A stretch of DNA of 64,000 nt from a virus. The stretch lies in IMG/VR virus record IMGVR_UViG_3300045988_126062; one strand, written 5' to 3'. This document shows, in pieces, positions 18,063-55,234 of the stretch; position 1 is the stretch's first letter, and the number at the start of each line of letters is the position of its first letter. The position numbers and the translations under genes were made by a program. The notes below the pieces were generated by a model. The model had not been told where the DNA came from and did not search any database. It was given only the letters and a program-made list of their open reading frames with translations.

Positions 18063-18224
18063 TCCAAAAAACAAACAAAATGGAAGAAAAAGAGATAAAA
18101 GAAGCTATGATTGAAGCCCTGACGCACTTAGAGGGGTGTAAGTATTTCGTGGCCACGATAGTAAATAATCGAGAATAATACATAACTCATACAAATCATA
18201 ACCAATTTGTATTGTATTATGCAT

Positions 18225-18463
18225 AATAGCCAAAAGCTATTCCGATTATTAGCCTAAGTGTTGAAACAAACACTACGTTATTTAAGAATAGATAGTTACC
18301 TACGGATATTTACCCAAGTCTGTAGCTCTAAGGTAGGTGATTAAACAGTTCTGGTATTCAGGAACAGTGTTGCTTACGAAAAACCTTAAATAACATTGGC
18401 GATGGGTACTAACAGAGTTTTACTCTGACTTATGTTGAATAAACATTAAAAACGTTTGTAGAT
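18225..18463 (+). ncRNA. IscB omega-RNA, copy A: variable guide-like segment (~18225-18246) plus conserved scaffold starting TATTAGCCTAAG at 18247 and running to the iscB start
   Basis: Directly upstream of an IscB gene; same scaffold found at 30020 and on the minus strand at 49345, with compensatory base changes in two stems. Confidence 0.65.
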
Positions 18464-19690
18464 ATGGTGTACGTACAAGACATAAATGGTAAACCTCTGA
18501 TGCCAACAACGAGGCATGGTAAGGTTAGGAGACTGCTTAAAGATAAAAAGGCAGTCGTTGTGAACCTATGTCCGTTTACCATCCGATTAACGTACGTAAC
18601 ATCTGATTACAAACAGGAAATTGTGTTAGGCGTTGATGCTGGAACTAAGCATGTTGGTTTATCAGCAACGACGAAAAGCAAAGAACTTTACAGCAGTGAA
18701 GTAATTCTTAGAAATGATATCGTAGATCTTTTGTCTACCAGAAGAGAGCTACGAAAAACAAGACGGAATAGATTGAGACATAGAAAACATCGTTTTAACA
18801 ATAGAATAAAAAGTAGGCGTCCCGGATGGACAGCACCTTCGGTGAAATACAAAGTAGACGCCCATATTCGTGTTATTGACAATGTATGTTCTATATTACC
18901 AATATCTCGTATTGTTATCGAAGTAGCTCAATTCGATACTCAAAAGATTAACAATCCTAATATATCAGGTAAAGAATATCAGGAGGGTGATCAACTTGGA
19001 TTTTGGAACGTTAGGGAATATGTTTTAGCAAGAGATGGACATAAATGCCAGCATTGCAAGGGAAAGTCAAAAGACCCAGTATTGAATGTTCATCATATTG
19101 AATCACGAAAGACAGGTGGAGATTCCCCATCTAATCTTATTACCTTATGTGAAACTTGTCATAAAGAATACCATAAAGGTAATATAGATTTAAAAATCAG
19201 AAGAGGCAAGTCGCTTCGCGACGCAGCCGTAATGGGAATAATGAAATGGAGATTGTATGAAGAACTAAAATCTAAATACGACAACATTTCTATGACTTTC
19301 GGTTATGTTACAAAATACAATAGGATTAAACATGGTATTGAAAAATCTCATGTTTTCGATGCATTTGTTATTTCTAAAAACTTTGATGCTATAAGGTTAG
19401 GATATTATTATAAAGTAAGATTAGTAAGAAGACATAATCGTCAGATCCATAAACAAAAGATTCCAAAAGGAGGAATCAAGAGGTTAAATCAATCTCCATT
19501 TGAAGTTTTTGGTTTCCGTTTGTTTGATAGGGTTATGTTTGAAAACAGTTATTACTTTATATTTGCAAGGCGTAAAACCGGTAGTTTTAATATTCGAGAT
19601 ATTGATGGTAAAAACCAAAGAGATATTACATACAAGAAATTGAAATTATCAAGGTGTAAACGCTTTATGGTACAAAAGGAAATGGATTGA
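18464..19690 (+). CDS. iscB: IscB RNA-guided nuclease (PLMP, RuvC-I, Arg-rich bridge helix, RuvC-II, HNH, RuvC-III), 408 aa
   Basis: PLMP motif; RuvC-I LGVDAGTKHVG; bridge helix RRELRKTRRNRLRHRKHRFNNR; RuvC-II IVIEVAQFD; HNH HKCQHCKG...NVHHIESRKTGGDSPSNLITLCETCHKEYH; RuvC-III HVFDAFVIS. Confidence 0.85.
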   Translation: MVYVQDINGKPLMPTTRHGKVRRLLKDKKAVVVNLCPFTIRLTYVTSDYKQEIVLGVDAGTKHVGLSATTKSKELYSSEVILRNDIVDLLSTRRELRKTRRNRLRHRKHRFNNRIKSRRPGWTAPSVKYKVDAHIRVIDNVCSILPISRIVIEVAQFDTQKINNPNISGKEYQEGDQLGFWNVREYVLARDGHKCQHCKGKSKDPVLNVHHIESRKTGGDSPSNLITLCETCHKEYHKGNIDLKIRRGKSLRDAAVMGIMKWRLYEELKSKYDNISMTFGYVTKYNRIKHGIEKSHVFDAFVISKNFDAIRLGYYYKVRLVRRHNRQIHKQKIPKGGIKRLNQSPFEVFGFRLFDRVMFENSYYFIFARRKTGSFNIRDIDGKNQRDITYKKLKLSRCKRFMVQKEMD

Positions 19691-27336: not shown

Positions 27337-27575
27337 GAATCAGAAAGATAATAGAGGATATAATTATTACTCAGTTTCTTAATTCGGAAATAGATATAGT
27401 TCATGAAGAAGATGTGTCGTTTAAAGAACTTGGATTAGATTCTGTTGATCGAATTGAGCTTGATGTGATGGTGGAACAAAAATTCAATATTGTTATTATT
27501 GATTATGATATGGAGACCATCAAAGATATGACTGATCTTGTTTACAAAATAATAACAGAAGGGTATGGGAAGTGA
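27324..27575 (+). CDS. Hypothetical protein (83 aa)
   Basis: ORF track. Confidence 0.4.
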   Translation: MEKVRIRKIIEDIIITQFLNSEIDIVHEEDVSFKELGLDSVDRIELDVMVEQKFNIVIIDYDMETIKDMTDLVYKIITEGYGK

Positions 27576-28059
27576 TATAATTTTATGCATGGCTTTAATA
27601 GCATCATTTGCTTTTGTTATACAGTTTTTGTTGTCGATATTAGGATCTGATCTGGATACGGATATTGATATTGATGATGCTTCTGATTTAAGTATGTCTT
27701 TGTCGGACATCATATCATTCAAGGGCATAACACATTTTATTCTTGGATATAGCTGGACTACCTACTTTTCGGGTTCCCATTTAGTAGGGGTTGTGATAGG
27801 GTCGTTTTTCTTTATCGTTTTGTTTTACGTATATAAGTTACTTCTTAAGTTAAAGCAAGAAATGGTGTACGAATGTCCGGAAGATTTAAATGGCAGAGAG
27901 GTGGAGATAGTGTTTAGATCAGGGAAGAATCATTATATGGTAAATATTTCGAAAAATGGAAGACAGGAGCAAATGAGAGTAAGATGCTTGTCTGGAAAAA
28001 CTTACAAAAACGGTGACAAGGTGAATATAAAATACGAAGAAGGAGAATTAATTATCTAA
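27565..28059 (+). CDS. NfeD-like membrane protein (multi-TM N-terminus + beta-rich OB-like C-terminus), the usual partner of SPFH proteins
   Basis: Three hydrophobic segments then GREVEIVFRSGKNHYMVNIS...; sits directly upstream of the flotillin gene, as in the yuaF-floT arrangement. Confidence 0.5.
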   Translation: MGSDIILCMALIASFAFVIQFLLSILGSDLDTDIDIDDASDLSMSLSDIISFKGITHFILGYSWTTYFSGSHLVGVVIGSFFFIVLFYVYKLLLKLKQEMVYECPEDLNGREVEIVFRSGKNHYMVNISKNGRQEQMRVRCLSGKTYKNGDKVNIKYEEGELII

Positions 28060-28090
28060 TTTTTTTATCAACAATTAGATTTTAAAAGTT

Positions 28091-29791
28091 ATGACAACAA
28101 TTATGTACGTGTCAGCCATCTTAGCTGTAGTGATTATTTTGACAATCATCGGAGTCTTATCAAGGTATCGTAGATGTAAGCCTAATCAGGTCTTGGTCGT
28201 TTATGGTAAGACAGGTGGAGAGAAGAAATCGGCGAAATTATATCATGGTGGAGCAGCATTCGTGTTGCCTATTATCCAAAGCTATGATATTTTATCTATG
28301 GAGCCTATGCAAATAGATTGTAGGCTTACCGGTGCTTTGTCATCTCAGAATATTAGAGTAGATGTGCCTACAACTATTACAGTAGCTATCAGTACAAATC
28401 CTGAAATCATGCAAAATGCAGCAGAAAGACTTTTGGGGATGGATACCGAATCTACTGAAAATCTTATTACAGACATCGTTTACGGTCAGATGCGTTTGAT
28501 TATTGCCGAAATGACAATCGAAAAACTTAATTCTGATAGGGATGAGTTTTTGGATAAGGCAAGAAAAAACATTGATAACGAACTTAATAAATTGGGTCTT
28601 TATCTTTTGAACATTAACATCAGTGACATCAGAGATGAAGCCGGCTACATCATGAATCTTGGTAAAGAGGCTGAAAGCAAGGCTCTGAACGAAGCACAGG
28701 CTAATATCGAAGAACAGGAAAAGCTGGGTGCTATTAAGATTGCTGTACAACAGAAGGAAAAAGAAACGGCTGTAGCTAATACCCAAAAAGAGCAAGAGAT
28801 TCAAATTGCCTATACTGAAAAAGAAAAAGAAACGGTAGTAGCTGAAACAAAGAAAGAAAAAGAAGTAGCTTTGGCTTTAACCGATAAAGAAAAACAGATC
28901 GGTGTAGCTCAAGCCGATAGAGATAGGGCTGCGGCTATAGCAAAGACTTTGGCTGACAAGGGATCAGCGATTGCAAGATCTAAGGCGGAACTTGAAGTAA
29001 ACAAAGCTGAAGCCGAAAGAATGGAAGAAGTTGGAAAGAATAAAGCTGAAGCTGACAAACAAGCAGCTATAGCAATACAAGACTCTGAAGCTCAGATTAA
29101 GAAAGCTGAGGCTGAGAAAAATGCTTCTGTAGGCTACAACAATGCCCAGAAAGAGGTTGCTGTATCAGAATCAGAATTGCAGGTTATCAAAGCTCAATCA
29201 GAAAAGAAAGCCGGAGAAGAGAAAGTTAAATCGGAAGCGGCTGTGAAAACGGCAAAAGAGCTTGCTGATAAAGAAGTGGAAGAAGCTAAAGCTAAGAAGG
29301 TTCAAGCTGCGCTTAAAGCTGAAAAGATTGTGCCGGCTGAAATTCAGAAGCAGGAGGCTATGTTGCAAGCTGATGCCGAGGCCGAGAAGATCAAACGCCG
29401 GGCCGATGCTGAAGCAGCAGCACATTTGGCAAAAGCAGAGGCGGAAGCAAAAGCTATTCAGATGAAGCTGGAAGCGGAAGCCGAAGGTAAGAAAAAGTCG
29501 TTGATGGCAGAAGCCGACGGATTTAAGGCTATGGTGGAAGCAGCAGAATCCAATCCTCAGATCGCCATCCAGTACAAGATGGTTAATCAGTGGAAAGAAA
29601 TTGCTGGAGAACAGGTTAAGGCGTTCGAGCACATCAATCTCGGAAATATCACGGTATTTGACGGCGGTCAGAACAGCACCGGTAATTTCCTTAACAATGT
29701 TGTTAAGGCCGTTGCTCCGGCATTGGGAGTCATTGATCAGCTTCCGATTGCAGATACTTTAAAGAAGTTAAAAGGAGATGACAAAAAATAA
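28091..29791 (+). CDS. SPFH/band-7 flotillin-like protein (N-terminal TM, SPFH domain, long EA/KE-repeat coiled coil), 566 aa
   Basis: YGQMRLIIAEMTIEKLNSDRDEF SPFH core; AEAEAKA-type repeats. Confidence 0.75.
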   Translation: MTTIMYVSAILAVVIILTIIGVLSRYRRCKPNQVLVVYGKTGGEKKSAKLYHGGAAFVLPIIQSYDILSMEPMQIDCRLTGALSSQNIRVDVPTTITVAISTNPEIMQNAAERLLGMDTESTENLITDIVYGQMRLIIAEMTIEKLNSDRDEFLDKARKNIDNELNKLGLYLLNINISDIRDEAGYIMNLGKEAESKALNEAQANIEEQEKLGAIKIAVQQKEKETAVANTQKEQEIQIAYTEKEKETVVAETKKEKEVALALTDKEKQIGVAQADRDRAAAIAKTLADKGSAIARSKAELEVNKAEAERMEEVGKNKAEADKQAAIAIQDSEAQIKKAEAEKNASVGYNNAQKEVAVSESELQVIKAQSEKKAGEEKVKSEAAVKTAKELADKEVEEAKAKKVQAALKAEKIVPAEIQKQEAMLQADAEAEKIKRRADAEAAAHLAKAEAEAKAIQMKLEAEAEGKKKSLMAEADGFKAMVEAAESNPQIAIQYKMVNQWKEIAGEQVKAFEHINLGNITVFDGGQNSTGNFLNNVVKAVAPALGVIDQLPIADTLKKLKGDDKK

Positions 29792-29830: not shown

Positions 29831-29999
29831 AGCAAAAGCAGCATTTATAGATTTCCTGCCGGCAGGGACAGTGCTTTACTAATTATAATATTTTTAACAT
29901 GGATTTTGGACAAGATTTAGAACCAGAAGAACTGACCGGGCATTATGATCGGTGTTATAACCCCAAATAGTATTAACCCAATATAATTCTATTATAAAA

Positions 30000-30268
30000 G
30001 TTTAATACATCTCTTTCAGAGATCGGGTTATTAGCCTAAGCCTTGAAACAGAGGCTACGTTATTTGAGAATAAATAGTTACCAAGGAATGTTTATCCAAG
30101 TTTCTTGCTCTAAGGATGGTGATTAAACAGGAGTAGTGTATTTGACGAAACAGTGTTGCCATTATATAAAACCTCTTATAACATTGGCGATGGGTACTTA
30201 CAGGAGAAATCATGACTTATCCCTAACGGGATTTACATCTACCAAGGAGACCGGAAGGTCTCCGAGGG
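30000..30268 (+). ncRNA. Orphan omega-RNA-like scaffold, copy B (no adjacent IscB): distinct 5' guide-like sequence, scaffold from 30020, 3' end replaced by GGAGACC-ggaa-GGTCTCC hairpin (30246-30263)
   Basis: Aligns with copies A and C over ~170 nt; stems retained through compensatory changes (GTGTT/AACAC vs GCCT/AGGC; CTAC/GTAG vs CAAG/CTTG). Confidence 0.6.
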
Positions 30269-30320
30269 GATGTATTAAAACATATGAATAGCTTTAAATA
30301 TATTTAATAGAATATGAGAT

Positions 30321-30668
30321 ATGGAATTGATTTTGAAACAGAAGAAGAGGAGGATGAAGAGTATGACTGATGAGGAATTTGCATTAGATAATAAGAAAAA
30401 GGTTGTTGTAAGAAAAAGAATATCCTATTTAAACAAAGGGGATAAAGTGTGGATCGTGTCTTCCGACGGGTATCTGCTACACACGGACGTGGTTAGAGCC
30501 GACCGAGGCCGATCTTATGTGGATATAGACGGGATACTGTATTGGAAACGTGGATTGGATGGCAAACATCGTAATCGTAACAACTACATGCAGTTCGCCA
30601 TGACACCAGAAGATGGTAAGAAGTATGTCGTATATTACCCGGAAGGATTTAAAGACGATAGCTTATGA
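30321..30668 (+). CDS. Hypothetical protein (115 aa)
   Basis: ORF track. Confidence 0.45.
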   Translation: MELILKQKKRRMKSMTDEEFALDNKKKVVVRKRISYLNKGDKVWIVSSDGYLLHTDVVRADRGRSYVDIDGILYWKRGLDGKHRNRNNYMQFAMTPEDGKKYVVYYPEGFKDDSL

Positions 30669-31684
30669 TGGTCCCGGAAACGCATTTGCTATATAAGGAG
30701 TTTAATGGTGTGAAACGTCTTGCCATATCTTATTCCCAGATAGATACGTTTCTTACTTGTCCAATGAAATGGTATAAGACTTATGTGGAAGGTAAAAGGT
30801 CTACAGAAAAACAAGAAGCTACGTCTTATGGTACGGTTATTCATAAGACACTGGAATACTTCTTCAAGAACGGAAGACAGCCTTCTGGCAAAGACCTGGG
30901 GGAAGCTATAAGTTACTATGCTTACCAAGAAGACATACCTTGGCAATCACCGGAAAATATGATGATAGCCATGAAACAATCTGGAGAACTTCTTGCTTGG
31001 ATTGTGGATCTGTTTAAAAAAGACGGGAATAGGTTTATGATAGCTGATAGTGATCTTAATCCCTGTGAAAAACTTATCAGACACGGCGCTATAGTTGGAG
31101 TCGAAGAAGATTTTGTGCTGCCGTATCGTCTTCCTAAGCCTGTTGATATAAATGGTGACGTTCATACACATGTGTACATAGTAGGATCGGTAGACCTTCA
31201 TCTGGCTATAAAAAGCAAGAACGTAGTTCACCATTATGTCATAGATTGGAAATCAGGAAATAAGGTTTTTGATTCTAAGAAATTGGAAACGAATTTACAG
31301 CATCCTATATATTCATTTTACATCTATAGAAAATATGGTGGAGTTCTACCAGATATGAACATCTATTTCTTTACCAGAACCAGACAATACCAAAAGGTTA
31401 AGGTGGATGAGGAACGTAAGACAAAATCTATAGAGATGCTAAATGACACTTTGTCTAAAATGTATGATTTTGAAGATAATAGTGTAAAATCATTTCAAGC
31501 GTACATCCAGGGAGCAGAAGGAGCCAGGTATAGCAAGCGGCGTGCCACCCTAAGCCAGCCTGTTCCGCAAAACAAGCTACCCTGCCCGTCAGCACTGTGT
31601 TACTATTGTGACTTTGGATTACATAACAAAAACGAATGCCCTTTCTCTTCGGATTGGGATCCGTCTAAAAAGATAAAACGATGA
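30665..31684 (+). CDS. Cas4/RecB-family PD-(D/E)xK exonuclease with Fe-S-type cysteines (one N-terminal, cluster at C-terminus), 339 aa
   Basis: ISYSQIDTFLTCPMKWY, GTVIHKTLE, GSVDLHL, VIDWKSG (D-x-K), QHPIYSFY (QxxxY), CPSALCYYC...C. Confidence 0.7.
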   Translation: MMVPETHLLYKEFNGVKRLAISYSQIDTFLTCPMKWYKTYVEGKRSTEKQEATSYGTVIHKTLEYFFKNGRQPSGKDLGEAISYYAYQEDIPWQSPENMMIAMKQSGELLAWIVDLFKKDGNRFMIADSDLNPCEKLIRHGAIVGVEEDFVLPYRLPKPVDINGDVHTHVYIVGSVDLHLAIKSKNVVHHYVIDWKSGNKVFDSKKLETNLQHPIYSFYIYRKYGGVLPDMNIYFFTRTRQYQKVKVDEERKTKSIEMLNDTLSKMYDFEDNSVKSFQAYIQGAEGARYSKRRATLSQPVPQNKLPCPSALCYYCDFGLHNKNECPFSSDWDPSKKIKR

Positions 31685-32183: not shown

Positions 32184-32561
32184 ATGAAAAAAGAAGTCAC
32201 AATCAAGGAAGATATGGCTGTGTTTTATAAAAATACAGGAAAAGAACTATGGATTTATAACGGACTTTTCAGAAACAAGGTGTTGTCTATAAAAAAAGAT
32301 AAAGCCATTATCATGTGTGAAACTGATGCTGAATATGCTGTACTGATAGAAGATAATCAGTTTATTGCCGTAGCAAAAAACATGGATTATGATTACTGCT
32401 GCGCATTCACATTAGGTAATGCCGAGGCTTATGGGGATCGTATGGGCATATCGTGCAGTGTATGCTTGCTTGAAGATAACGAAGATAAAGCAAGGGAGAT
32501 GTTGAAAGAGGCGATAATAGAACTTTCAAAAAACAGTAAAATAGATTGCGATGGGCTTTGA
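32184..32561 (+). CDS. Hypothetical protein (125 aa)
   Basis: ORF track. Confidence 0.45.
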   Translation: MKKEVTIKEDMAVFYKNTGKELWIYNGLFRNKVLSIKKDKAIIMCETDAEYAVLIEDNQFIAVAKNMDYDYCCAFTLGNAEAYGDRMGISCSVCLLEDNEDKAREMLKEAIIELSKNSKIDCDGL

Positions 32562-33972
32562 ACTTAGACCTTACCAAAAAGAGGCAGTAGATGCCGGGCT
32601 TAAGTTCCTTACAGGAAGATCTAAGAAGCCTGGCATAGAAGTCTTGCCGTGTGCAGCGGGGAAGTCTTTGATAATTAGCAAGATAGCTCATGAATTAAAA
32701 AGACCTATCCTTGTATTACAGCCATCTAAAGAGATTCTGGAGCAGAATTATGCGAAGGCTGTATCATTCGGTTCTAAACCTACCATATATTCTGCTTCAT
32801 GTAAAAAAAAAGAGTTATCGGCTATGACTTATGCTACACTTAAAAGCATAAAGAAAGACGTAGCAAGGTTGAAAGATATAGGGATAGACACATTATTGAT
32901 AGATGAGGTGCATAGCGGGTATTCTCCTGAAGAAGGTTCTGAATTTATGGAGTTTATGAACAGGTTCCCAGAGGCGAAGGTGCTGGGCTTCACCGCCACG
33001 CCCTGCCGCCTCCGGACCTACAGCTCCATGCTGGAAGGAAACTACAGCAAACTTAATATGCTGACGAAAGACGAGCATAATTTCTTTAAGAAGATAGTTC
33101 ATGTGACTCAAATACAAGAGCTAACTTCTCAGGGATTTTGGTGCCCTCTTAAGTACGAACGATGGTCGTTTGATGAATCGGCTCTGATATTAAACAGTAC
33201 CGGAGCCGAATATACCAACGAATCTATTAAAGAAAGCATCGTACGAAACGGCTTAAACAACTCTATCTACAAGCGCCTTCTTCAACTTATGAACGAGCGT
33301 AAAGCTATTTTGGTTTGCATGGATTCTATCGAATCATGTAATAGAATATCAGAGTTCATGAATGCCAGGATGGGAGCCATAACCGGTGTCGTAACATCGC
33401 TAACAACCAAAAAGAAAAGAGAGCAAATCATATCCGATTTCAAAGAAGGTAAGTTGAAGGTGGTTTTTAATTATTCAACGCTTGCTACCGGATTTGATTT
33501 TCCCGAACTTGATTGTGTGATGTTTGGACGACCAACATTCTCATATTCAACATATTACCAGGTGCTCGGCAGGTGCGTCCGCATCCATCCTGACAAGAAA
33601 GAGGCGCTGATAGTTGACTGCTGCGACAACATGAGGCGCTTTGGTCGGATAGAAGACCTGACAATCGAGCAATTCCCTTCTAAGGGCTGGTGTATGTTTG
33701 CCGGCGATCAACTTCTGTCTAATATAAGGATGGGTGATATTATTACCAAAGACGAGATCCTTCGTCGGGCAGCCTCGATTAAATCTGTGAATGGAGATGG
33801 TAGGAGAGAAGACGATCTTGACAGTATAATAATGTGGTTTGGAAAATATGAAGGAATTAGATTCAAGGACATACCGGTGTCGTATTTTAGGTTCTTGGCT
33901 GAGAATATGGCGGTAAAACCGGGAGATAGGAAAGAAAAGATTATCGAATATTATAATAGGATAAAAGCATGA
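32551..33972 (+). CDS. Superfamily-2 DEAH-box helicase (473 aa)
   Basis: Motif I PCAAGKSL, II LLIDEVHSG, III GFTATPCR, VI QVLGRCVRI. Confidence 0.8.
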   Translation: MGFELRPYQKEAVDAGLKFLTGRSKKPGIEVLPCAAGKSLIISKIAHELKRPILVLQPSKEILEQNYAKAVSFGSKPTIYSASCKKKELSAMTYATLKSIKKDVARLKDIGIDTLLIDEVHSGYSPEEGSEFMEFMNRFPEAKVLGFTATPCRLRTYSSMLEGNYSKLNMLTKDEHNFFKKIVHVTQIQELTSQGFWCPLKYERWSFDESALILNSTGAEYTNESIKESIVRNGLNNSIYKRLLQLMNERKAILVCMDSIESCNRISEFMNARMGAITGVVTSLTTKKKREQIISDFKEGKLKVVFNYSTLATGFDFPELDCVMFGRPTFSYSTYYQVLGRCVRIHPDKKEALIVDCCDNMRRFGRIEDLTIEQFPSKGWCMFAGDQLLSNIRMGDIITKDEILRRAASIKSVNGDGRREDDLDSIIMWFGKYEGIRFKDIPVSYFRFLAENMAVKPGDRKEKIIEYYNRIKA

Positions 33973-40200: not shown

Positions 40201-43200
40201 CTACTTGTAGCTCACATCATCGTCTCCTTCTGAATCAGGAGTAGCGCCGATGAAGAACATCATTGACTTGTTGTTTGTCTGCTGCCACCAATTATAGGCG
40301 CGCGCTACGTCTTCCGGCGTCTTGATATTATACCATTGTTTGATAAACGTCTGTTTGGCGAGTTGCCTAAATAACTTAGACTCTCCCTTGTATGTACCGG
40401 ATGTTACTTTATCAAGTGAATAATTCCTAAGATCGGTAAGATCCTTCAGTTTTCGCCCCATAACAAACGGATCGTTAATGATATCTACCACGTTAAGCTC
40501 CATAATAAACGGCATCTGTGAAGCTATTTCGTTTATGGTTCTGAATCCGACATAGGATCCAAATTGAGTAAGCCAACTTTCTTCGTTTTCATCATCATCA
40601 CGCCATCCGGCAAGAAGCATAGATACGGCCTGCATGATAAGGAACGTGCCGGCATAGACACTGAGACGTTTGAGATTGGTTTTTTCTACCTCATTCATAT
40701 TGTCTTTATTTTCGTTCCAGGCATCTATGATGTTTTTCATACCAGACTCGGAAGCCAGGCTAAATGTTTTGGCTATCATATTCTTTAACGTAATTGACAA
40801 CCCTTCCTCTTCTTGCATTGTCTGGAAATTGAAGCCACGTCTTTTCCACAGACGTTGAGCCGCCAGCACCAACCATCCTCGGTGGGCGGTCATGAACCTG
40901 GCTATCCAGTTGCGCGATGCGGCAGTTCGGTTTTCTTCATTCAAAGATCCGTTACATATCTGCGACAAGCTACGGACTTGATTCCTGGTTATAGCCATCT
41001 GGGTTTCAACTTCCTCAACAGTAACACCCGATCCCGGCTTTACAACCACCTTTCCATCCACGACGTCTACCATACTCCATAAAGTACGATCTTTTAATGC
41101 GTTCCATTCTCTTTTTATGGTACTCTGTTCTTTATTGCGTTCTTTTTCCATCTTGAAATCTTGGAACGTGTAGAACCGGCCTTTGTAATAACGAACATTG
41201 TCCATAGTAGCAATCATAACCTGCGGATCAAGAGGGTAGTTCAGGATTTCCATAAAAGCATACATAGGCGAACGCATTAAGGTCCTGGCCGCTCTATTGT
41301 ATCCGGCACCATACATACGATTTCGGATATTGAATATCCCCATTCTCTCACCTATGACATATAATTTGCTTTTCCTATCTATGTCTCCGGTTTCTGCTAT
41401 ACAAGATGGCGCAAGACGGGAAAACTCAGCCGATGCGTATTTAAGGGAATCTTTGCTTATATACTGTCCTACGGCTGATTCCATGATGAGGTTGATATGG
41501 CCTGTCAGGGCGCCGGTAGCTGCCACAAACGGAGACAGTGCCAAGTTCATAACCGACATAAATCTTTCAACAGCCATCATAATTCTTGTAAGGTCTACCG
41601 TATATCCTCCGATGTTCACCGTAAGTTTTTTGGTGTTCATCCTAATGCCATAATAATGATCGTTGAAGAAGTCCCTGAACATCTGATATGCTTGGGTTGC
41701 TTCAGCCTTTTTACCACCTTCAAATTGTTTATTTAGTAACATCTGCTCCAGTCCTTGGGCAAGCTCTATAGACTTCTGCTTTTCGTTGTATAACGATGAT
41801 TGCATCATAAGCATCGAATAAGAGTAGCCAAAATCGTGAGATACATCATCTTGGTTCTCCAATTCATATATGTAGTATTTAGGTATAGACCTAAGCCTGT
41901 CTTCTGGATCATACACTTCTCCTTGCCTGGTCTTACCATATAGAGAATCGTCTACTCTGTCCAGGCACAGATCTGATACAAAATTACGAACCGTATTTTT
42001 GAAGTTAATACCCAATCCTTCTACACGTTCTATATCTTGTTTGGATATCTGTGGAATAGCATACAGGTTCGGGCTCTGCTCTTTGTATAGATCAAGGGAT
42101 TGTCTTTTTATTTCCTTGAGTTTTTGAATCATATTCCACTGCTCTACGTTTTTAGTAGCAACCTCATTACCGTCAGCATCATACTTGATACCAAAGTCAT
42201 TGAAATACGATTCGTCACGATACAGGCTTTTCTTAGGCATTCGATGACCATACCCATGATCTTTTACATAATCAGGATTACGACCGCTATTTTCGGCTTC
42301 AGATTCAGCCACCCATGCCCTTGCAGGGTCGAAAGACAAGTACGATATGTCCATGCCATAATCTTGGGTGGATGTACCGTTTTGTACGTCCTTAACCATT
42401 TGCGCCACATCTATCTCACCTCGACCGATTTTGTCGATCATAGCTGCATATCCGGTAGGCGCCATGCGTTTATAGTACGAAAAAACCTGGCTTCTGGCAA
42501 ATTCATTAACAATAGCATTAGCTTCTTCTACGCCCTCTTCTCTTGTATTATTTAAAAATAAGCTGGCCATCTTAGCATTAACAGCATTCCTGAAATCTCT
42601 ACCGTCTAATTCTTTGCTTATACCAAGCTTTTCTGACAGGTAGTTGGTTTCAGATACGGTAAACAGATATCGGTTATCAGCAGCCTTAAACAGCTTATCC
42701 CTTAAAGCCTGAATCCTTTTTGCTTTCTTCGCCGTAGTATGACGTTGTACGAACTTCCATTCCACTTCCTTGGAGTCAGCAAGAGCATTTAAATAAGACT
42801 GATTTACTTCGTTTTCAGCCTTACTGCTTTTAGTAAGGTACTTATCAATATCTTCAAGACCCACCATCTTAGCATAATCTATCAAAATAGCGTAATCGGC
42901 TTCAATAGCTTCAGATGCGGCCCTAAAAGCATCTCTTTCGGATGAGGTAAATGTCGCTTCGTTAATTTCTCCGATATCAGCCACATCGCGATTGTTTCCG
43001 ATTATTTCCTTGATAATAGCCTTATTTTTTTCTATATCTTTCACAATAGAATCCACGTCAGTCGCATCTCTATCACTTGTCGTAGAACTAATGATATCAT
43101 GCGCCATTTTAAGATACGAAGCCTTGTTATTTGATTCGGTACGTGCCGACTGTTCTGATTCTACATCATTCCAAAACCGATCGTTGAATGACAGGTGACC

Positions 43201-46200
43201 TCCCAACATAAGTGTCTTCAGCGCAGCTTCTCCTCCAGACTCGCTCTGAATCGTTCTTAATTTTTGCAAAAACGATTCTGATACGGCATTAGTGGCATTA
43301 TTTGATTCCTTTCTCCAAACTTCATTTATAGCTTGTATTTCTTTGGCCATCTTAAGTTGGTCGCCGGTTTTTTCCACTCTCCTGGTTCCTACATATATGT
43401 ATTCTGAAGCTGCTTCCTTACGTTGTTTACGAAGCAGTCCTTCTTCTTCGTAATTGCTGCTTTTAAAATAGGCAACCTCATCAAAATTACCACCGCTATC
43501 AATAAAAGGCTGCCTCAATATCCGTTTTTGCCGGGATAGGGCATTAAGATATTCTTTGGTTGTTTGAGAAACCGGATACCCTAATTCTTCTTCAGCCTTT
43601 TTGTATATGGATTCCATTCTTGTGGCATAACTTTCGCTAAATTCCAGTTCCGAATTTTCAGCATCCCACTTTTCCATCTGCTCTGCATAGATCTTTTCCT
43701 GCTCGATGGTAAAAATATCGGTATTAACCCTATCAGACGATGGTTTGAATTTAGCGTTTTCAGTAACCGTATTTCCATCCTTGTCAACTACTTCTCTTTT
43801 AAATACGTAATTACGGTTATTGTCAACCACATCACCAATTTCTTCTTCTGATATCTCTATGTTCATGGCAGTCGCAAACGCTCGCATCTGCGCCAGCTTC
43901 TTATTACGATCGTATTTAGCCATATCAAGAGCACTACGAAGGTAATTAGAAGTTTTGCCGTCTACTTTCTGAAGCAGTTTTTCAAATTCAGATTTGTTAA
44001 AACCATGCTTTTTCGCATATGCCAGGAAATCGGATATGGCGGGCTGGGCATTCACCATCGCATTGTAATTGTCTTTGGCAATCATAGCTCCAAGAGCGTT
44101 ATTGAACGGACTGGAAGAATGCTCTAATATACCGAACCACCTACTTATCCAAGAAACATCGTGTTGAACCTTGTCGAAAAATTCTTTTACTCTCTTTACC
44201 TTATCTGCCGGCACATGAAGTTCGTTCATTAACTTATCAAGCAACGTACTTTCATCAAGGTCTTGTACTGATTTAATATCAGACTGAATACCATTGATGT
44301 CGGCAATGACGGTATTGATCCTATTTGTATAATCCTGCTTTTCACGTTCATCAAATTCGGTACTTCTGTTACGGATATATCCTCGAAGATCGTTCATGAT
44401 CGGAAGAACCTGATTGTTGATAATATCTACGTTCTTTCGATCATTGGTACTGAAGTGAAGCTTACCGTCTTTGGTATCACCATGAAGGATGGTGTTCACC
44501 ACATTGCTTAAGTATCTGACCTGAGCTTCGGCTGTAGAGATCATGCTGTTCATGGCAGCCGCCATCTCATTCTTGTCTATTTCGGTCTCTACCTTATTTA
44601 TCTTATCTTCTATGGTCTTAAGCTGAGCAAGGGTCATAGACGTAGTTACAGCCCTATCAGAGCTTATCTGACGTAAGTCTCTTAATGTTTTCCTTAATGC
44701 CAGGATCTTAGACTCAAGAAACTTGTTCTTGTTCATAGAAGAAAGGGAGTATAATGTAAAGTCATTATCCTTTAACAGAGAGGTGTCAAATCCTTTATCT
44801 ATGTCAGTAATGGCAAGATCACGAATGTTTTTAATAACGTTATTCAAATCTTGTCTTTGGGTTGATAAAGCTGATTTAAGCCAGCTTACGATTCCAGAGA
44901 AAAGCTGCCGGACGCGCCCCAGGAAGGAGGTGGGCTCTACCGGCGCCTGTGCTGTGCCGGTCTGCATCTCCCTGGCGAGGATCTTTCCAAGAATTTCTCT
45001 CCTAACAGCATTATCAAGTTCAGAGCCTTCATATACCTTACCGTATGTATTATAATACTGACCTGCATACTGATTCCATTCTTCAGTGCCTTCTACATCT
45101 TGCAAAACAGATTCAACAGCATTCTGATCTCTGTACGCCTCTACGAGAAAGTGTGCTGTTTCTTCTACTAAGTCAGACAAAGTAGCATCTTCACCGACTG
45201 CTATTACGTTATTGGCAATATCCGCCAATGCCTTAGCAGAAGGTTCGTGTCCGTATTTAGTTTGGTACTTCTCTATATAATCGGTCATGCCAACGACACT
45301 AACGCCCAGCGTTTTCAGTATCTCAACAATAGAATTTCGTTGATTACGTTCCTCTTGGCTATAATCCGATACTATCTTAGCTTTAGCATCAGCATAAAGA
45401 TCGTTGTCTTCTAATATGAATGAAACTACAAGCGCATCAAAATGATCGTACTTAGCATCCAATTCATTGTATCTTCCTGACTTGAGATCGTTCTTTATCT
45501 GCTCCTTGCTAATCCTCTCCGTTCCTCCGGTGGCGAGCCTCATAGTTACCTTACTATTATCCAATGAATTTATGGTTATCATACCCTGGTCGTTCATGGA
45601 AACATCGGAACCAAAATGATTACGGAGCTCAGTGTAGGATAAGGCTGAATTGAAAAGTCTAATTTGTCCTGTATGTCCTTCTCCTGTAAGATAATAGCTC
45701 CTTGTTTCAGGATCGAATATCTTGGATCCGGACAAAAGACCTTTCTTTATAAGGTAGTTAATTATCCCGCCTTTCGTTGATAAAGAAGTAGAAGCAGAAG
45801 CGGTCATGACCGGTATAAAAGATTTGGGATTATTAAGAACATACTTCCCAGCCTTGTAAGTAATGTCTGCCACGCCATCCACGGTAGATTCTTGAACGGT
45901 GCCGGATAAGAATCCTATTCTAATATCATTCCCGCCAGAGCGAAGAGCTTCTCCGTAATCTTCAAATAATTGACTACGATCGTTCATGAAAAACAAACGA
46001 GGCTCTCCGGTCTGATACGTTACACCCACAGGATTAGAATCTGTTTCTGGTAGCTCTTCTGGGCTAAATATCTTAAGACCGTCTTTTATAACCATATAAT
46101 CAACACCCTTATCCTGCACCATAGATACGGGAGTGAAGTCCGAAGATATAGCATCTTGTAGATACTGACCGGCGTCTATTCCAGGTCCTTCCGGCACGGA

Positions 46201-46623
46201 AATACTTGACGGAACCATAGCATCCACCAACATAATATTATCACCCAGATCTTGGCTGTAGAATCCAAAGCCCGATTCTCGGATTCCATAAGGTGCATCT
46301 GATTTTGACACAAGGATAGGGTTACTCATCTTAGAAGCCTTATCCAGCACCCTTTCCCTGTAGGTTTCAGGAATAAGATCAATATTGGATTTTACCTTAT
46401 TATAAGCCTGTTTATTAACAGGTACATTCCTTCTCCAGTCACCAAAAGCCTTTAAGAACTTATTAGAAAATACGGTTTTAAAAACAGTAGTAGACCGTTC
46501 CCTGTTCTCCATAAGAGGAATAGATGCTATTTTATCAAACAACATAGACCTGTCCCCTGATCTGGTAGAGACAGAAACAACTTTCTTTTTATTATCTCTT
46601 TTAATAATACACGTTGATACCAT
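40201..46623 (-). CDS. Giant protein (2140 aa), probably a crAss-like virion/ejected protein; could be the virion RNA polymerase, but no catalytic motif was confirmed
   Basis: Uninterrupted 6.4-kb ORF; a gene of this size next to a second giant gene matches crAss-like architecture. Confidence 0.8.
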   Translation of the reverse strand: MVSTCIIKRDNKKKVVSVSTRSGDRSMLFDKIASIPLMENRERSTTVFKTVFSNKFLKAFGDWRRNVPVNKQAYNKVKSNIDLIPETYRERVLDKASKMSNPILVSKSDAPYGIRESGFGFYSQDLGDNIMLVDAMVPSSISVPEGPGIDAGQYLQDAISSDFTPVSMVQDKGVDYMVIKDGLKIFSPEELPETDSNPVGVTYQTGEPRLFFMNDRSQLFEDYGEALRSGGNDIRIGFLSGTVQESTVDGVADITYKAGKYVLNNPKSFIPVMTASASTSLSTKGGIINYLIKKGLLSGSKIFDPETRSYYLTGEGHTGQIRLFNSALSYTELRNHFGSDVSMNDQGMITINSLDNSKVTMRLATGGTERISKEQIKNDLKSGRYNELDAKYDHFDALVVSFILEDNDLYADAKAKIVSDYSQEERNQRNSIVEILKTLGVSVVGMTDYIEKYQTKYGHEPSAKALADIANNVIAVGEDATLSDLVEETAHFLVEAYRDQNAVESVLQDVEGTEEWNQYAGQYYNTYGKVYEGSELDNAVRREILGKILAREMQTGTAQAPVEPTSFLGRVRQLFSGIVSWLKSALSTQRQDLNNVIKNIRDLAITDIDKGFDTSLLKDNDFTLYSLSSMNKNKFLESKILALRKTLRDLRQISSDRAVTTSMTLAQLKTIEDKINKVETEIDKNEMAAAMNSMISTAEAQVRYLSNVVNTILHGDTKDGKLHFSTNDRKNVDIINNQVLPIMNDLRGYIRNRSTEFDEREKQDYTNRINTVIADINGIQSDIKSVQDLDESTLLDKLMNELHVPADKVKRVKEFFDKVQHDVSWISRWFGILEHSSSPFNNALGAMIAKDNYNAMVNAQPAISDFLAYAKKHGFNKSEFEKLLQKVDGKTSNYLRSALDMAKYDRNKKLAQMRAFATAMNIEISEEEIGDVVDNNRNYVFKREVVDKDGNTVTENAKFKPSSDRVNTDIFTIEQEKIYAEQMEKWDAENSELEFSESYATRMESIYKKAEEELGYPVSQTTKEYLNALSRQKRILRQPFIDSGGNFDEVAYFKSSNYEEEGLLRKQRKEAASEYIYVGTRRVEKTGDQLKMAKEIQAINEVWRKESNNATNAVSESFLQKLRTIQSESGGEAALKTLMLGGHLSFNDRFWNDVESEQSARTESNNKASYLKMAHDIISSTTSDRDATDVDSIVKDIEKNKAIIKEIIGNNRDVADIGEINEATFTSSERDAFRAASEAIEADYAILIDYAKMVGLEDIDKYLTKSSKAENEVNQSYLNALADSKEVEWKFVQRHTTAKKAKRIQALRDKLFKAADNRYLFTVSETNYLSEKLGISKELDGRDFRNAVNAKMASLFLNNTREEGVEEANAIVNEFARSQVFSYYKRMAPTGYAAMIDKIGRGEIDVAQMVKDVQNGTSTQDYGMDISYLSFDPARAWVAESEAENSGRNPDYVKDHGYGHRMPKKSLYRDESYFNDFGIKYDADGNEVATKNVEQWNMIQKLKEIKRQSLDLYKEQSPNLYAIPQISKQDIERVEGLGINFKNTVRNFVSDLCLDRVDDSLYGKTRQGEVYDPEDRLRSIPKYYIYELENQDDVSHDFGYSYSMLMMQSSLYNEKQKSIELAQGLEQMLLNKQFEGGKKAEATQAYQMFRDFFNDHYYGIRMNTKKLTVNIGGYTVDLTRIMMAVERFMSVMNLALSPFVAATGALTGHINLIMESAVGQYISKDSLKYASAEFSRLAPSCIAETGDIDRKSKLYVIGERMGIFNIRNRMYGAGYNRAARTLMRSPMYAFMEILNYPLDPQVMIATMDNVRYYKGRFYTFQDFKMEKERNKEQSTIKREWNALKDRTLWSMVDVVDGKVVVKPGSGVTVEEVETQMAITRNQVRSLSQICNGSLNEENRTAASRNWIARFMTAHRGWLVLAAQRLWKRRGFNFQTMQEEEGLSITLKNMIAKTFSLASESGMKNIIDAWNENKDNMNEVEKTNLKRLSVYAGTFLIMQAVSMLLAGWRDDDENEESWLTQFGSYVGFRTINEIASQMPFIMELNVVDIINDPFVMGRKLKDLTDLRNYSLDKVTSGTYKGESKLFRQLAKQTFIKQWYNIKTPEDVARAYNWWQQTNNKSMMFFIGATPDSEGDDDVSYK

Positions 46624-47867: not shown

Positions 47868-47904
47868 GATACGTTTTTCTATTAAATTTATTAAATCTAT
47901 TCAT

Positions 47905-49143
47905 TTACTTTAATATAATCGGATGCCTCTTCCCTCTAATGAGTTTAAACTTTTTGCGTGAAACATCTTTTGAATTTTCTCCGTTGAAATCCCTGATATT
48001 GAAACTCCCTGATTTTCTCCTTCCATAAACAAAACATATTTTATTATTATACAACACTTTATCAAACAACCTAAAACCAAAAACCTCAAAAGGAGCTTGA
48101 TTGTTTTTCTTCTTTCCTCCTTTTAAAATTTTCATTTTATGTATTTGCCTATTATGCCTACGAATTAAACGTTTTAAATATTGACATCCGATTCGTTTCG
48201 CATTAATGTTCTTAGAAATGACAAACGCGTCGGATGTATGGGATTTTTCAATCCCGTATTTAATCCGATTATGTTTCGTAATGTAACCAAACGTCATAGA
48301 AACTCTGTCGTATCTGGATCTCAGTTCTTCATACAACTTCCATTTCATGATCCCCATTACGGCCGCGTCGCGGAGCGACGATCCCCGTTTGATCTTCAAA
48401 TCTATATTACCTTTATGGTATTCTTTGTGACAAGTTTCACATAAGGTAATAAGATTAGAAGGGGAATCACCTCCCGTTTTTCGGGATTCAAGATGATGGA
48501 CATTAAGGATCTTATCTTTTGACTTCCCTTTACAATACTGACATTTATGCCCATCCCTTGCTAAAACATACTCCCTTGTGTTCCAAAACTCAAGTTGATC
48601 ACCTTCCTGGTATTCTTTACCTAATATTTCAGGATTCTTAATCTTTTGAGTATCAAATTGAGCTACTTCAATAACAATACGAGATATTGGTAGTATAGAG
48701 CAAATATTTTCAATAACACGAATATGAGCGTCTACTTTGTATTTCACCGAAGGTGCTACCCATCCTGGACGCTTGCTTTTTATTCTATTATTGAAACGAG
48801 GTTTTCTATACCTCAACCTATTCCGTCTTGTTCTTCGTAGCTCCCTTCTGGTAGACAAAAGATCTACGATATCATTTCTAAGGATCACTTCACTACTGTA
48901 AAGTTCTTTGCTTTTCGTTGTAGCTGATAAACCAACATGTTTAGTACCAGCATCAACGCCTAACACGATTTCTTGTTTGTAATCAGATGTAACGTACATT
49001 AATTTGATGGTAAACGGACATAGGTTTACAACGATTGCCTTTTTGTCTTTAAGCAGTCTCCTTACCTTACCATGCCTCGTTGTAGGCATCATAGGTTTAC
49101 CATTTATATCCTGTACGTACACCATACTTACAAACGTTTTCAA
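47905..49143 (-). CDS. iscB: IscB RNA-guided nuclease, second copy (412 aa; about 90% identical to the copy at 18464; alternative start MVYVQ at 49122)
   Basis: Same PLMP, RuvC-I/II/III, bridge-helix and HNH motifs as copy 1; C-terminal ~25 aa diverge. Confidence 0.85.
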   Translation of the reverse strand: MKTFVSMVYVQDINGKPMMPTTRHGKVRRLLKDKKAIVVNLCPFTIKLMYVTSDYKQEIVLGVDAGTKHVGLSATTKSKELYSSEVILRNDIVDLLSTRRELRRTRRNRLRYRKPRFNNRIKSKRPGWVAPSVKYKVDAHIRVIENICSILPISRIVIEVAQFDTQKIKNPEILGKEYQEGDQLEFWNTREYVLARDGHKCQYCKGKSKDKILNVHHLESRKTGGDSPSNLITLCETCHKEYHKGNIDLKIKRGSSLRDAAVMGIMKWKLYEELRSRYDRVSMTFGYITKHNRIKYGIEKSHTSDAFVISKNINAKRIGCQYLKRLIRRHNRQIHKMKILKGGKKKNNQAPFEVFGFRLFDKVLYNNKICFVYGRRKSGSFNIRDFNGENSKDVSRKKFKLIRGKRHPIILK

Positions 49144-49368
49144 TGTTTATTCAACATAAGTCAGAGTAAAACTCTGTTAGTACCCATCGCCAATGTTATT
49201 TAAGGTTTTTCGTAAGCAACACTGTTTCGCAAATACACTACTCCTGTTTAATCACCCACCTTAGAGCTACAGACTTGGGCAAACATCCGTAGATAACTAT
49301 CTATTCTCAAATAACGTAGCCTTCGTTTCAAGGCTTAGGCTAATATCCGGACCATTTATGGTACATTA
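49144..49368 (-). ncRNA. IscB omega-RNA copy C (minus strand): scaffold 49345 down to 49144, guide-like segment ~49346-49368
   Basis: Reverse complement aligns with copies A and B; directly upstream of the iscB start. Confidence 0.65.
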
Positions 49369-49460
49369 AAACCTTATAATGAAATTATATTGTTTTAATG
49401 TTATTTCGGATATGAAAACAAATTCGCCACCGTATCTTTTATTAGCCAATTCTTCTACAG

Positions 49461-54757: not shown

Positions 54758-55234
54758 TCAAACTGCCATCACGAAGAGTGGTGACTTCCAAGCTGGGATG
54801 TTGAAAACAGTACTGGTACTACCAAACTCACCATTCAACTTGATAGCATTTCCGCTGTTATTAGCCTCATAATAAAAATAACAATAATTTTCATTAATGC
54901 TTGGATCATATTCGTACCAATATGTTAGATCTTGTATATGGTCTTCTATATTACCAATTTTGTTTTCACCTAATATAAAAATACCATTATTGCTATGATG
55001 ATAAACCATAGATTCATAACCACCATAATTCCAATTACTATTAAACATTATGTAACTAACATCGGAATCATGATCTTTTAATACAGGCCCTATATGTATA
55101 TGAATTTTATTAAACTGACATACATAAGGTCTTTTTCCTCCAAGCCTTTTTATATCTTCATTGGATAACTTATTATAACATCCTCCCACGAAATTATCCG
55201 CAGCATTAAAAAATCTCCTTCTCATACTCAACAC
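54758..55234 (-). CDS. Hypothetical protein (158 aa)
   Basis: ORF track; 7-nt overlap with the upstream giant gene (translational coupling). Confidence 0.5.
   Translation of the reverse strand: MLSMRRRFFNAADNFVGGCYNKLSNEDIKRLGGKRPYVCQFNKIHIHIGPVLKDHDSDVSYIMFNSNWNYGGYESMVYHHSNNGIFILGENKIGNIEDHIQDLTYWYEYDPSINENYCYFYYEANNSGNAIKLNGEFGSTSTVFNIPAWKSPLFVMAV

Follow-up and report, generated by a model that had tools for sequence, protein, structure and literature searches.

A RecB-type nuclease, probably of the replication block of a crAss-like phage, and its incidental neighbour, a protein-less IscB mini-element

The stretch of viral DNA analysed here (IMG/VR record IMGVR_UViG_3300045988_126062, 64,000 nucleotides, referred to as the window) carries on its plus strand an IscB omega-RNA scaffold (HEARO) at positions 29957 to 30201, a small ORF at 30321 to 30668 (115 aa as listed) and a 339-aa nuclease gene at 30665 to 31684, whose start is overlapped by the stop codon of the small ORF. 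The first-pass annotation had described the nuclease ORF in these terms, and it was found as described. A genuine HEARO also lies upstream, as that annotation had claimed, at a distance of 464 bp from RNA end to nuclease start rather than the approximately 400 bp given there.

The 339-aa protein was identified as a PD-(D/E)XK nuclease of the RecB/Cas4 superfamily by Pfam and PHROG searches, a 31-sequence alignment, and AlphaFold2 (AF2) modelling with Foldseek comparison. A profile search for Cas4 or PDDEXK_1 had been proposed as the check, and PDDEXK_1 (PF12705) was matched at 75.1 bits (E=1.1e-20, cut-off 22) over profile positions 2-242 of 247; PHROG 69/1218 'exonuclease' was matched as well. 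When 31 homologues of 40-88% identity were aligned, residues C32, H60, E64, D177, D194-W-K196, Q212, Y216, C312, C315 and C325 were found to be invariant. These comprise RecB motifs I (GxxxH/E, H60/E64), II (D177) and III (D/ExK, D194-W-K196), the QhxxY motif (Q212/Y216), and a putative Fe-S set of one N-terminal (C32) and three C-terminal cysteines (C312, C315, C325). The full Cas4/RecB motif set attributed to the protein was thus present in its motifs and in its four cysteines but not in the spacing of the latter, which is C-x2-C-x9-C as opposed to the C-x2-C-x5-C of canonical Cas4; in the most divergent homologue, P0056, the last spacing is x5. A further cysteine, C306, is tempting to count with the others but varies across the alignment. 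Based on the motifs, D177, D194 and K196 are assigned as the catalytic residues. The protein is a stand-alone RecB-family PD-(D/E)XK enzyme of the putative iron-staple type, a class that includes the nuclease domain of AddB, AdnAB, Dna2 and the Cas4 family.

This is a known kind of nuclease, and a near-identical protein is already in GenBank: WOZ57342.1 of phage csAssE-Sib (OR575929), 98.8% identical and annotated 'exodeoxyribonuclease'. A tblastn search of 50,697 annotated phages returned csAssE-Sib and one Clostridium phage (33% identity) and nothing else; with just two phages matched, this collection says little about the spread of the family.

The AF2 model of the nuclease (pLDDT 94) was compared to the PDB by Foldseek, and its best structural matches (E 1e-9 to 1e-6) were AddB (1.2e-9), the Argonaute-associated Cas4-family protein ACE1 (3e-8), AdnA/B (5e-8) and Dna2 (3.5e-7). 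These proteins share with the nuclease the PD-(D/E)XK core and the arrangement of one N-terminal and three C-terminal cysteines. The phage protein differs in that it stands alone at 339 aa rather than forming a domain of a helicase-nuclease, and identity to these enzymes is just 10-16%. HMMER searches against solved structures with the single sequence and with the 31-sequence profile gave only noise, and the kinship with AddB and Cas4 therefore rests on Pfam and the predicted fold. Among 108 matches of the model in BFVD, those with names are called PD-(D/E)XK nuclease, RecB-like exonuclease or Cas4 family exonuclease. The phage 'Cas4 family / RecB-like exonucleases' (PDDEXK_1, PHROG 69) resemble the nuclease in Pfam family, motifs, four cysteines and stand-alone size; the nuclease departs from them in the x9 rather than x5 spacing of the last cysteine and in long beta-hairpin insertions at residues ~142-196 and ~274-300.

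The neighbours of the nuclease that were examined comprise a flotillin gene, small ORFs and a helicase. The latter, a 473-aa SF2 DNA helicase encoded at 32551 to 33972 on the plus strand (ResIII E=8e-18; Helicase_C E=8e-17; PHROG 16 'DNA helicase' E=3e-72), lies two to three small ORFs 3' of the nuclease in every relative examined, including the six loci L084-L089, and is likely its functional partner. The gene order DnaB, small ORF, nuclease, SF2 helicase is kept in relatives whose nucleases are 88, 70, 53 and 43% identical. No single-strand annealing protein was identified beside the nuclease. According to Yutin et al. 2021 (PMC7886860), crAss-like phages typically have a PDDEXK nuclease among their replication genes, and the present nuclease, placed between DnaB and an SF2 helicase, resembles the PDDEXK_b of that study in gene position. 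The annotation of csAssE-Sib uses crAss-type structural names (muzzle and ring proteins). We conclude that the nuclease gene is conserved and probably belongs to the replication/recombination block of a gut phage of ~150 kb that is close to csAssE-Sib and probably crAss-like. No primary report on csAssE-Sib, or on crAss-like phages with IscB, was found in the literature.

The conserved position of the nuclease between replication helicases points to a role in DNA metabolism. Whether that role is mainly the degradation of the host chromosome, for nucleotide supply or host shut-off, instead of phage recombination was weighed. Nucleotide-metabolism genes are present, with a dATP/dGTP diphosphohydrolase near the nuclease and a dUTPase and thymidylate synthase in csAssE-Sib, and the minimal replication apparatus carried by crAss-like phages of the Epsilon group, which are without a DNA polymerase of their own (PMC7886860), would also fit such a role. 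The tight conserved synteny, however, is with DnaB and the SF2 helicase and not with nucleotide-salvage genes, and in structure the nuclease comes closest to enzymes that process DNA ends in recombination and repair. We regard host degradation as the improbable one of the two functions.

A role in CRISPR adaptation was judged still less plausible. Cas4-like proteins encoded by Campylobacter phages have been proposed to steer spacer acquisition, and a phage-borne Cas4 that manipulates host adaptation in this or a similar way would be in line with the superfamily, motif order and cysteine set that the nuclease has in common with CRISPR-associated Cas4, with weak matches to the Cas4 models TIGR00372 (E=1.4e-5) and, in PADLOC, Cas4 (E=2e-6, alongside one to DruK) and with a fold shared with type I-C Cas4 (Foldseek E=5e-4). 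The latter match is weaker than those to AddB, AdnAB, Dna2 and ACE1, and the score against the CRISPR Cas4 equivalog TIGR00372 is 25 bits, far below its cut-off of 65. The nuclease is also ~120-140 residues longer than a typical CRISPR-associated Cas4 and is found without cas1/cas2, without CRISPR context and, by PADLOC, without defence-system context: no CRISPR-like repeat array was detected in the 64-kb window and no cas genes were seen in the csAssE-Sib annotation. Together with the conserved position between replication helicases, these results make the adaptation role very unlikely. The nuclease is not a CRISPR Cas4, and of the label 'Cas4-like Fe-S nuclease' only the RecB/Cas4 superfamily and the four conserved, putatively Fe-S-binding cysteines are retained.

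The small ORF at 30321 to 30668 is, as had been noted, the sole ORF between RNA and nuclease. Its homologues begin MTDEEF or MTDEQF, equivalent to a start at the ATG of position 30363, and its true product is thus probably 101 aa and not 115 aa. No match to it was found in Pfam, PHROG, NCBIfam or PADLOC. Relatives whose nucleases are 53-88% identical encode a homologue directly 5' of the nuclease, and loci devoid of the RNA insertion retain the ORF at 93-99% identity. It is a phage gene and not part of a mobile element; a remnant of IscB was ruled out, as the ORF occurs in all genomes with an empty site and is conserved upstream of the nuclease in those relatives.

The omega-RNA scaffold was matched to Rfam RF02033 at 95.2 bits (gathering score 83) over the full model (1-211). 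It forms part of a 364-bp mini-element (29957 to 30320, plus strand) that is devoid of any ORF and constitutes a clean insertion compared to csAssE-Sib, where the empty site reads ...CAGTGTT and continues, past the insertion point, with ATGGAATTG; its exact ends are ambiguous by an AT dinucleotide. The element is made up of the scaffold, two additional hairpins and a conserved 3' terminal stretch, and its 3' tail has ATGAATAG.TTTAA...TTTAATAGAA in common with the sequence past the stop codon of an IscB gene at 47905. The 'orphan' label given to this RNA is apt, in that no IscB ORF follows it (just the small ORF and then the nuclease), yet the window also contains two full loci of omega-RNA with IscB. 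The 80 best IscB loci included no full-length copy at the orphan's site that could be the parent of the deletion. A scan for sigma-70 promoters and terminators around the RNA gave 14 promoter-like sites versus 5.9 expected in this AT-rich DNA; promoters of crAss-like phages and Bacteroidota are outside the scope of such a scan, which is uninformative on expression of the RNA.

The scaffold begins at the insertion boundary, so that the 16 nt of phage sequence flanking it (29941 to 29956, plus strand; CATTATGATCGGTGTT) may, by analogy to known IscB architecture, serve as the 5' guide of the omega-RNA. When this guide was compared to 61 empty sites (60 IMG/VR loci and csAssE-Sib), which carry ...CATTATGATCAGTGTT or close variants followed by ATG, it had one mismatch to the target in each. 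The ATG at 30321 to 30323 (plus strand), which abuts the 3' end of the mini-element and follows the guide-matching target in empty genomes, is the candidate target-adjacent motif (TAM). IscB with the orphan omega-RNA is predicted to cut CATTATGATC(A/G)GTGTT followed by ATG or perhaps ACG.

Linkage of the RNA to the nuclease was assessed in those IMG/VR loci whose nuclease is 98-100% identical and whose site could be scored. The insertion was present in 18 (~23%) and the site empty in 60 (~77%), and csAssE-Sib, the closest annotated phage, has a precise empty site. No HEARO was detected within 5 kb of the nuclease in the six loci (L084-L089) of four more distant relatives, where the synteny of the nuclease is nonetheless kept. 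A consistent linkage of the two in related phages was therefore not observed. The occupied copies at this site (site A) score 90-111 bits for HEARO and differ from each other by compensatory stem changes that match omega-RNAs linked to IscB.

The mini-element is not confined to the nuclease site. A hairpin specific to the orphan was detected in 63 IMG/VR stretches, all of them ORF-less and none followed by an IscB ORF (0/63). Elements of 361-368 bp were found at no fewer than eight distinct sites of the phage population; away from the nuclease site, they precede seven or more unrelated genes or intergenic ATGs. Six of the eight sites (A, B, C, E, F and H) are clean or near-clean insertions compared to csAssE-Sib, and representatives of each of the seven other sites (B-H) carry a full HEARO of 91-101 bits. 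The right junction was ATG at seven of the eight mini-element sites and, for full IscB elements, at each of 18 distinct junctions; in csAssE-Sib the target is followed by ATG at ten of the sites examined and by ACG at two. An apparent TAM of ATG places copies of the mini-element directly in front of start codons.

Both full IscB elements of the window were delimited. Element 1 (18198 to 19690, plus strand) comprises an omega-RNA at 18198-18413 (HEARO 106 bits) and a 408-aa IscB at 18464-19690 with RRXRR and HNH domains (NCBIfam guided_IscB E=4e-106), and is a possible source in trans of protein for the mini-element. Element 2 (47905 to 49413, minus strand) comprises an omega-RNA at 49176-49413 (HEARO 89 bits) and a 412-aa IscB at 47905-49143, identified by Pfam and NCBIfam. 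Identity of the orphan scaffold is just 71% to the omega-RNA of element 1 and 80% to that of element 2. For these full elements csAssE-Sib does not provide a clean empty site, as the elements take the place of 145 bp and 1247 bp of its sequence. No TnpA was seen, and none is annotated in csAssE-Sib.

A precedent is provided by the PATE-like mini-elements of the IS200/IS605 type, protein-less and omega-RNA-bearing, which need a nuclease in trans (Meers et al. 2023, PMC10055086). The phage mini-element resembles these in its lack of an ORF, multiple copies, clean empty sites and presumed use of a nuclease in trans; as in the IscB omega-RNA on PATE-like elements, the HEARO scaffold is full and the guide position is at the element boundary. 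It differs in that it resides in a phage genome, has ATG as apparent TAM and no evident TnpA, and retains the iscB-distal end with an apparently precise deletion of the ORF.

The suggestion that the RNA and the nuclease form a functional module, in which the nuclease is RNA-guided or RNA-recruited or the RNA is domesticated to regulate a small ORF-nuclease operon, can draw on the same-strand position of the RNA upstream of the nuclease with one small ORF between, and on the retention of the insertion with an intact HEARO score in about a quarter of close relatives, but it is largely refuted by the presence/absence data, as nuclease, small ORF and helicase are equally conserved in the loci without the RNA and the same element precedes unrelated genes, and given also that the RNA is a canonical IscB scaffold in a window with two IscB genes and that no known RNA-binding domain was detected in the nuclease by Pfam search, we consider it the least credible of all readings, with hardly any probability left to it. 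The link of the omega-RNA to the nuclease is incidental, the landing place of a mobile element and not a functional module; the RNA adjoins the nuclease because a target plus ATG happened to lie there. The caveat of the first-pass annotation, that the juxtaposition may be coincidental, was well placed, the insertion being mobile and polymorphic at this site.

Taken together, these results lead us to favour, with good confidence, two independent neighbours: a RecB-type exonuclease of the replication block and a protein-less mobile IscB mini-element. The nuclease most likely carries out Mg2+-dependent resection of DNA ends by use of D177, D194 and K196, with a predicted 4Fe-4S cluster on C32, C312, C315 and C325 that would staple the N-terminal to the C-terminal part of the fold. 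With the downstream SF2 helicase it probably serves recombination-dependent replication and double-strand-break repair. The mini-element derives from an IscB element, of which it has kept the omega-RNA and the 3' end and lost the iscB ORF, and it has inserted between the 16-nt target and an ATG that lies upstream of the small ORF preceding the nuclease. Its IscB is probably supplied in trans by full-length elements at other positions of the genome it resides in. In co-infecting genomes IscB would cut the empty sites (target, then ATG), and homologous repair would copy the element in.

A more far-reaching version of these events, which we put forward tentatively and hold to be rather doubtful as a whole, casts the mini-element as a guide-only parasite that exploits IscB elements. 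It would spread through the crAss-like population on borrowed IscB, using ATG as TAM and replacing the leader of the gene in front of which it lands by its own 3' end, while the RecB/Cas4-like exonuclease and helicase of the phage resect the cuts made by IscB and so promote homing. The nuclease and the RNA would then be linked in a general manner and not by their adjacency.

The nuclease itself is of little moment, being one more phage exonuclease of the RecB/Cas4 superfamily, now relieved of a false association with a guide RNA. The by-product of the analysis is a clean natural data set for RNA-guided homing in phages: hundreds of genomes that are nearly identical, offer both occupied and empty sites, and contain full IscB elements as well as a protein-less derivative at many sites. 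The apparent ATG TAM would explain why elements of the IscB type sit just upstream of start codons.

Three matches to Rfam HEARO, the IscB omega-RNA, scored above the gathering threshold in the window. Two were followed by intact IscB genes (HEARO at 18198-18413 (+) with a 408-aa IscB; HEARO at 49176-49413 (-) with a 412-aa IscB), while the third (29957-30201 (+)) was positioned 5' of a nuclease gene (30665-31684 (+)) and had no IscB. The full omega-RNA and IscB loci spanned 18198-19690 (+) and 47905-49413 (-); both proteins carried the RRXRR and HNH domains of Pfam, matched NCBIfam guided_IscB at E ~1e-106 and were 80% identical to one another. The orphan scaffold shared 71% identity with the first IscB-linked scaffold and 80% with the second. 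The closest annotated phage, csAssE-Sib (Sib; OR575929, 151 kb, human gut), was without both full IscB loci at the corresponding positions, but these insertions were not clean: the loci stood in place of Sib stretches of 145 bp and 1247 bp, the longer of which contains a DUF2829 gene. Two Sib genes were annotated as 'TnpB' (L171 stretch, 58986-60125 and 64190-65413), of which the second (407 aa, IscB-sized) may be a mis-named IscB at another site; no TnpA (Y1 transposase) was seen in the Sib annotation.

The orphan RNA was found to lie in a 364-bp ORF-less insertion at 29957-30320, flanked by ...GGTGTT on the left and ATGGAATTG on the right; the placement of its boundaries is uncertain by the dinucleotide 'AT'. 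Sib has the same genes without the RNA and reads ...CAGTGTT followed directly by ATGGAATTG, a precise empty site, and the insertion and the HEARO scaffold begin at exactly the same base. Among 80 IMG/VR loci with a 98-100% identical nuclease, the insertion was complete at the identical position in 13 and truncated in five (by a contig end in four and a deletion in one); the site was empty in 60, and two loci were unscorable. When scanned with Rfam, HEARO was detected in 5/5 occupied loci and in 0/5 loci where the element was missing (four) or truncated at its 5' end (one). Sib and six loci of four more distant relatives had no HEARO up to 5 kb from the nuclease. Thus, the nuclease, the adjoining small ORF (30321-30668 (+)) and an SF2 helicase (32551-33972 (+)) are conserved whether or not the RNA is present. 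The first-pass annotation had regarded the proximity of nuclease and omega-RNA as suggestive, though perhaps coincidental; it is explained instead by a mobile mini-element whose insertion here is polymorphic, and, this one insertion aside, the linkage was absent from the related phages examined. Four contigs (L006, L023, L067 and L068) ended within the mini-element, as expected where assemblies break at multi-copy repeats. Two further loci (L075, L073) had deletions in the guide-forming flank, and one (L054) had lost both the flotillin gene and the 5' half of the omega-RNA.

The window and Sib were ~92% identical over the nuclease region, and the Sib counterpart of the nuclease, annotated as 'exodeoxyribonuclease', was 98.8% identical. 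Both shared the gene order DnaB-like helicase, acyl carrier protein, transmembrane protein, flotillin, small ORF and nuclease, continuing 3' with three small ORFs, the SF2 helicase and dATP/dGTP diphosphohydrolase, after which Sib encodes a cytosine methyltransferase. The core order of DnaB, nuclease, one to three small ORFs and SF2 helicase was maintained in contigs with 88, 70, 53 and 43% nuclease identity, and the small ORF adjoining the nuclease was retained in the first three. Homologues of this small ORF begin with MTDEEF, which corresponds to the window ATG at 30363; the probable product of ~101 aa has a conserved YWKRGLDGKHR motif, and its gene lies directly 5' of the nuclease gene and overlaps the nuclease start, also in relatives with 53-88% nuclease identity. 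No family match was found for this small protein, a possible partner for the nuclease. A PDDEXK nuclease within the replication block is characteristic of crAss-like phages, and their 'Epsilon' group has genomes of ~150 kb (Yutin et al. 2021, PMC7886860); the 151-kb size and crAss-type structural annotations of Sib are compatible with this group.

Several other features of the region were observed. The SF2 helicase contained intein/homing-endonuclease (Hint, LAGLIDADG) insertions in several relatives (L086, L087 and L088), with lengths of 632-849 aa in the intein-bearing proteins vs 473 aa in the window; L086 also encoded an intein-containing DNA methylase. The flotillin/SPFH protein (566 aa), which follows a 164-aa membrane protein (27565-29791), is not commonly expected in the replication region of a phage, and at least two close relatives (L027, L054) have lost its gene. 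A 51-bp tandem repeat (3.1 copies, 80% identity) occupied the very start of the window (1-160), and gene orientation and GC skew changed near 38 kb. Two giant ORFs (40201-46623 (-) and 55228-61872 (-); 2140 and 2214 aa) had no Pfam match; Sib has several very large ORFs annotated as 'structural protein'.

The 339-aa nuclease matched Pfam PDDEXK_1 (PF12705) at E=1.1e-20 (75 bits vs a cut-off of 22) and PHROG 'exonuclease' families 69 and 1218, and PF12705 was present in all 56 homologues recovered by database search. Alignment of 31 full-length homologues (40-88% identity) revealed invariant residues that included C32, H60, E64, D177, D194-W-K196, Q212, Y216, C312, C315 and C325, corresponding to RecB motifs I-III, QhxxY, and one N-terminal and three C-terminal cysteines. 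The spacing before the final cysteine, canonically x5, was x9 in the nuclease and x5 in the most divergent homologue of the alignment. On the basis of these matches and invariant columns, the initial description of a protein with Cas4/RecB motifs and a C-terminal cysteine cluster was correct. An AlphaFold2 model from the 31-homologue alignment was confident (pLDDT 94, pTM 0.88). By Foldseek comparison to the PDB, the AddB nuclease domain was nearest (E=1.2e-9), followed by ACE1 (Argonaute-associated, Cas4-family), mycobacterial AdnA/AdnB and Dna2, with CRISPR type I-C Cas4 matching no better than 5e-4; a sequence-level HMMER search against solved structures yielded no match. Predicted viral structures gave 108 matches at E<=0.001, those with names being 'PD-(D/E)XK nuclease', 'RecB-like exonuclease' or 'Cas4 family exonuclease'. 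Sequence and model thus place the protein in the RecB/Cas4 iron-staple nuclease superfamily, a well-known class, and it had already been annotated in a publicly deposited phage genome.

Identity as a CRISPR Cas4 was rejected. The nuclease scored 25 bits against the NCBIfam Cas4 equivalog (cut-off 65), PADLOC Cas4 models matched weakly (E ~1e-6), and no CRISPR-like array was found in the 64-kb window. Based on the fold ranking, the sub-cut-off score and the array-less window, the Cas4-like assignment holds at the level of the superfamily but not for CRISPR Cas4. Family, catalytic residues, cysteine set and synteny with replication helicases were established for the nuclease. By analogy to AddB, AdnAB and Dna2, it would resect DNA ends, its fold stapled by a 4Fe-4S cluster, and may act in recombination-dependent replication or break repair together with the SF2 helicase encoded 3' of it. 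Degradation of host DNA is a possible alternative; nothing found here supports a role in CRISPR adaptation.

The mini-element retains the two ends of an IscB element and has lost the ORF: in its 3' tail (ATGAATAGCTTTAAATATATTTAATAGAATATGAGAT) it corresponds to the sequence that comes after the stop codon in the 47905 IscB gene (ATGAATAGATTTAATAAATTTAATAGAAAAACGTATC). By use of a hairpin specific to the mini-element, 63 IMG/VR stretches were identified, none with an IscB ORF following. Representative elements were 361-368 bp and occupied at least eight different sites, including the nuclease site (site A); full HEARO was detected in all seven representatives of sites B-H (91-101 bits) and in the site A copies (90-111 bits). 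Compared to Sib, five of the non-nuclease sites were clean or near-clean insertions, one had a 545-bp deletion and one had mixed flanks. The site with the deletion precedes thymidylate synthase, and others precede a 522-aa ORF or are intergenic. Site D (L182, L185) combines two flanks that lie far apart in the Sib genome, suggesting a rearrangement between copies of the element. The ORF-less element, which has two additional hairpins (CCCTAACGGG and GGAGACCGGAAGGTCTCC), constitutes a separate family. Nuclease-site copies differed by compensatory stem changes (e.g., CAAGGAA/TTTCTTG in one, CTACGGA/TCTGTAG in another) that match IscB-linked omega-RNAs, suggesting that copies may exchange sequence with structure preserved. 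Taken together, the RNA is mobile and independent of the nuclease.

IscB systems have the guide 5' and the TAM 3'. ATG was found directly 3' of full IscB elements at 18/18 distinct right junctions (among the 80 best IscB loci) and directly 3' of the mini-element at 7/8 sites; in the window these ATGs are at 30321, 19713 and 47868-47870. Of the sites examined in Sib, ten had ATG directly after the left-flank match and two had ACG. In light of these junctions and the IscB architecture, the simplest reading is a putative TAM of ATG, perhaps AYG. The ATG was often annotated as the start codon of the gene that follows, which suggests insertion directly 5' of start codons in the orientation of the downstream gene. 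Six IscB elements (L134, L135, L138, L142, L143 and L150; ~2727-2800) were followed by the tRNA-gene-like sequence ATGGT.TATTTAGGACCCGTAG.TCAAT.GG..., so some may lie directly before tRNA genes rather than protein genes.

Insertion 5' of the nuclease operon would reflect a 16-nt target followed by ATG (30321). The putative guide of the window copy (29941-29956) differed from all 61 empty sites (60 IMG/VR and Sib) at one position, six bases from the putative TAM, with G instead of A: the empty sites read GATCAGTGTT (or GATCAGTATT/GATCAGTGTC) before ATG, and GATCGGTGTT precedes the element in the window and in several further occupied alleles. Where the site is empty, the insertion point is spanned by an acidic ORF of 36 codons (MDFGQDLEPEELTKHYDQCYGIDFETEEEEDEEYD; window 29900-30368, Sib L001 stretch ~4900-5010), whose end overlaps the MTDEEF start. 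The mini-element splits this ORF, and the element 3' end provides an in-frame ATG (ATGAGAT, then ATGG...) that would restart the same frame.

Protein-less, omega-RNA-bearing PATE-like elements that need a nuclease in trans have been described (Meers et al., PMC10055086), and the mini-element is of this known kind. It would depend on IscB in trans and may spread via homing. Processing of IscB-made breaks by the phage resection machinery is a possible connection, albeit a generic one that does not depend on adjacency. Of moderate interest as by-products of this analysis are the protein-less IscB mini-elements at many sites in a crAss-like phage population and their apparent ATG TAM.
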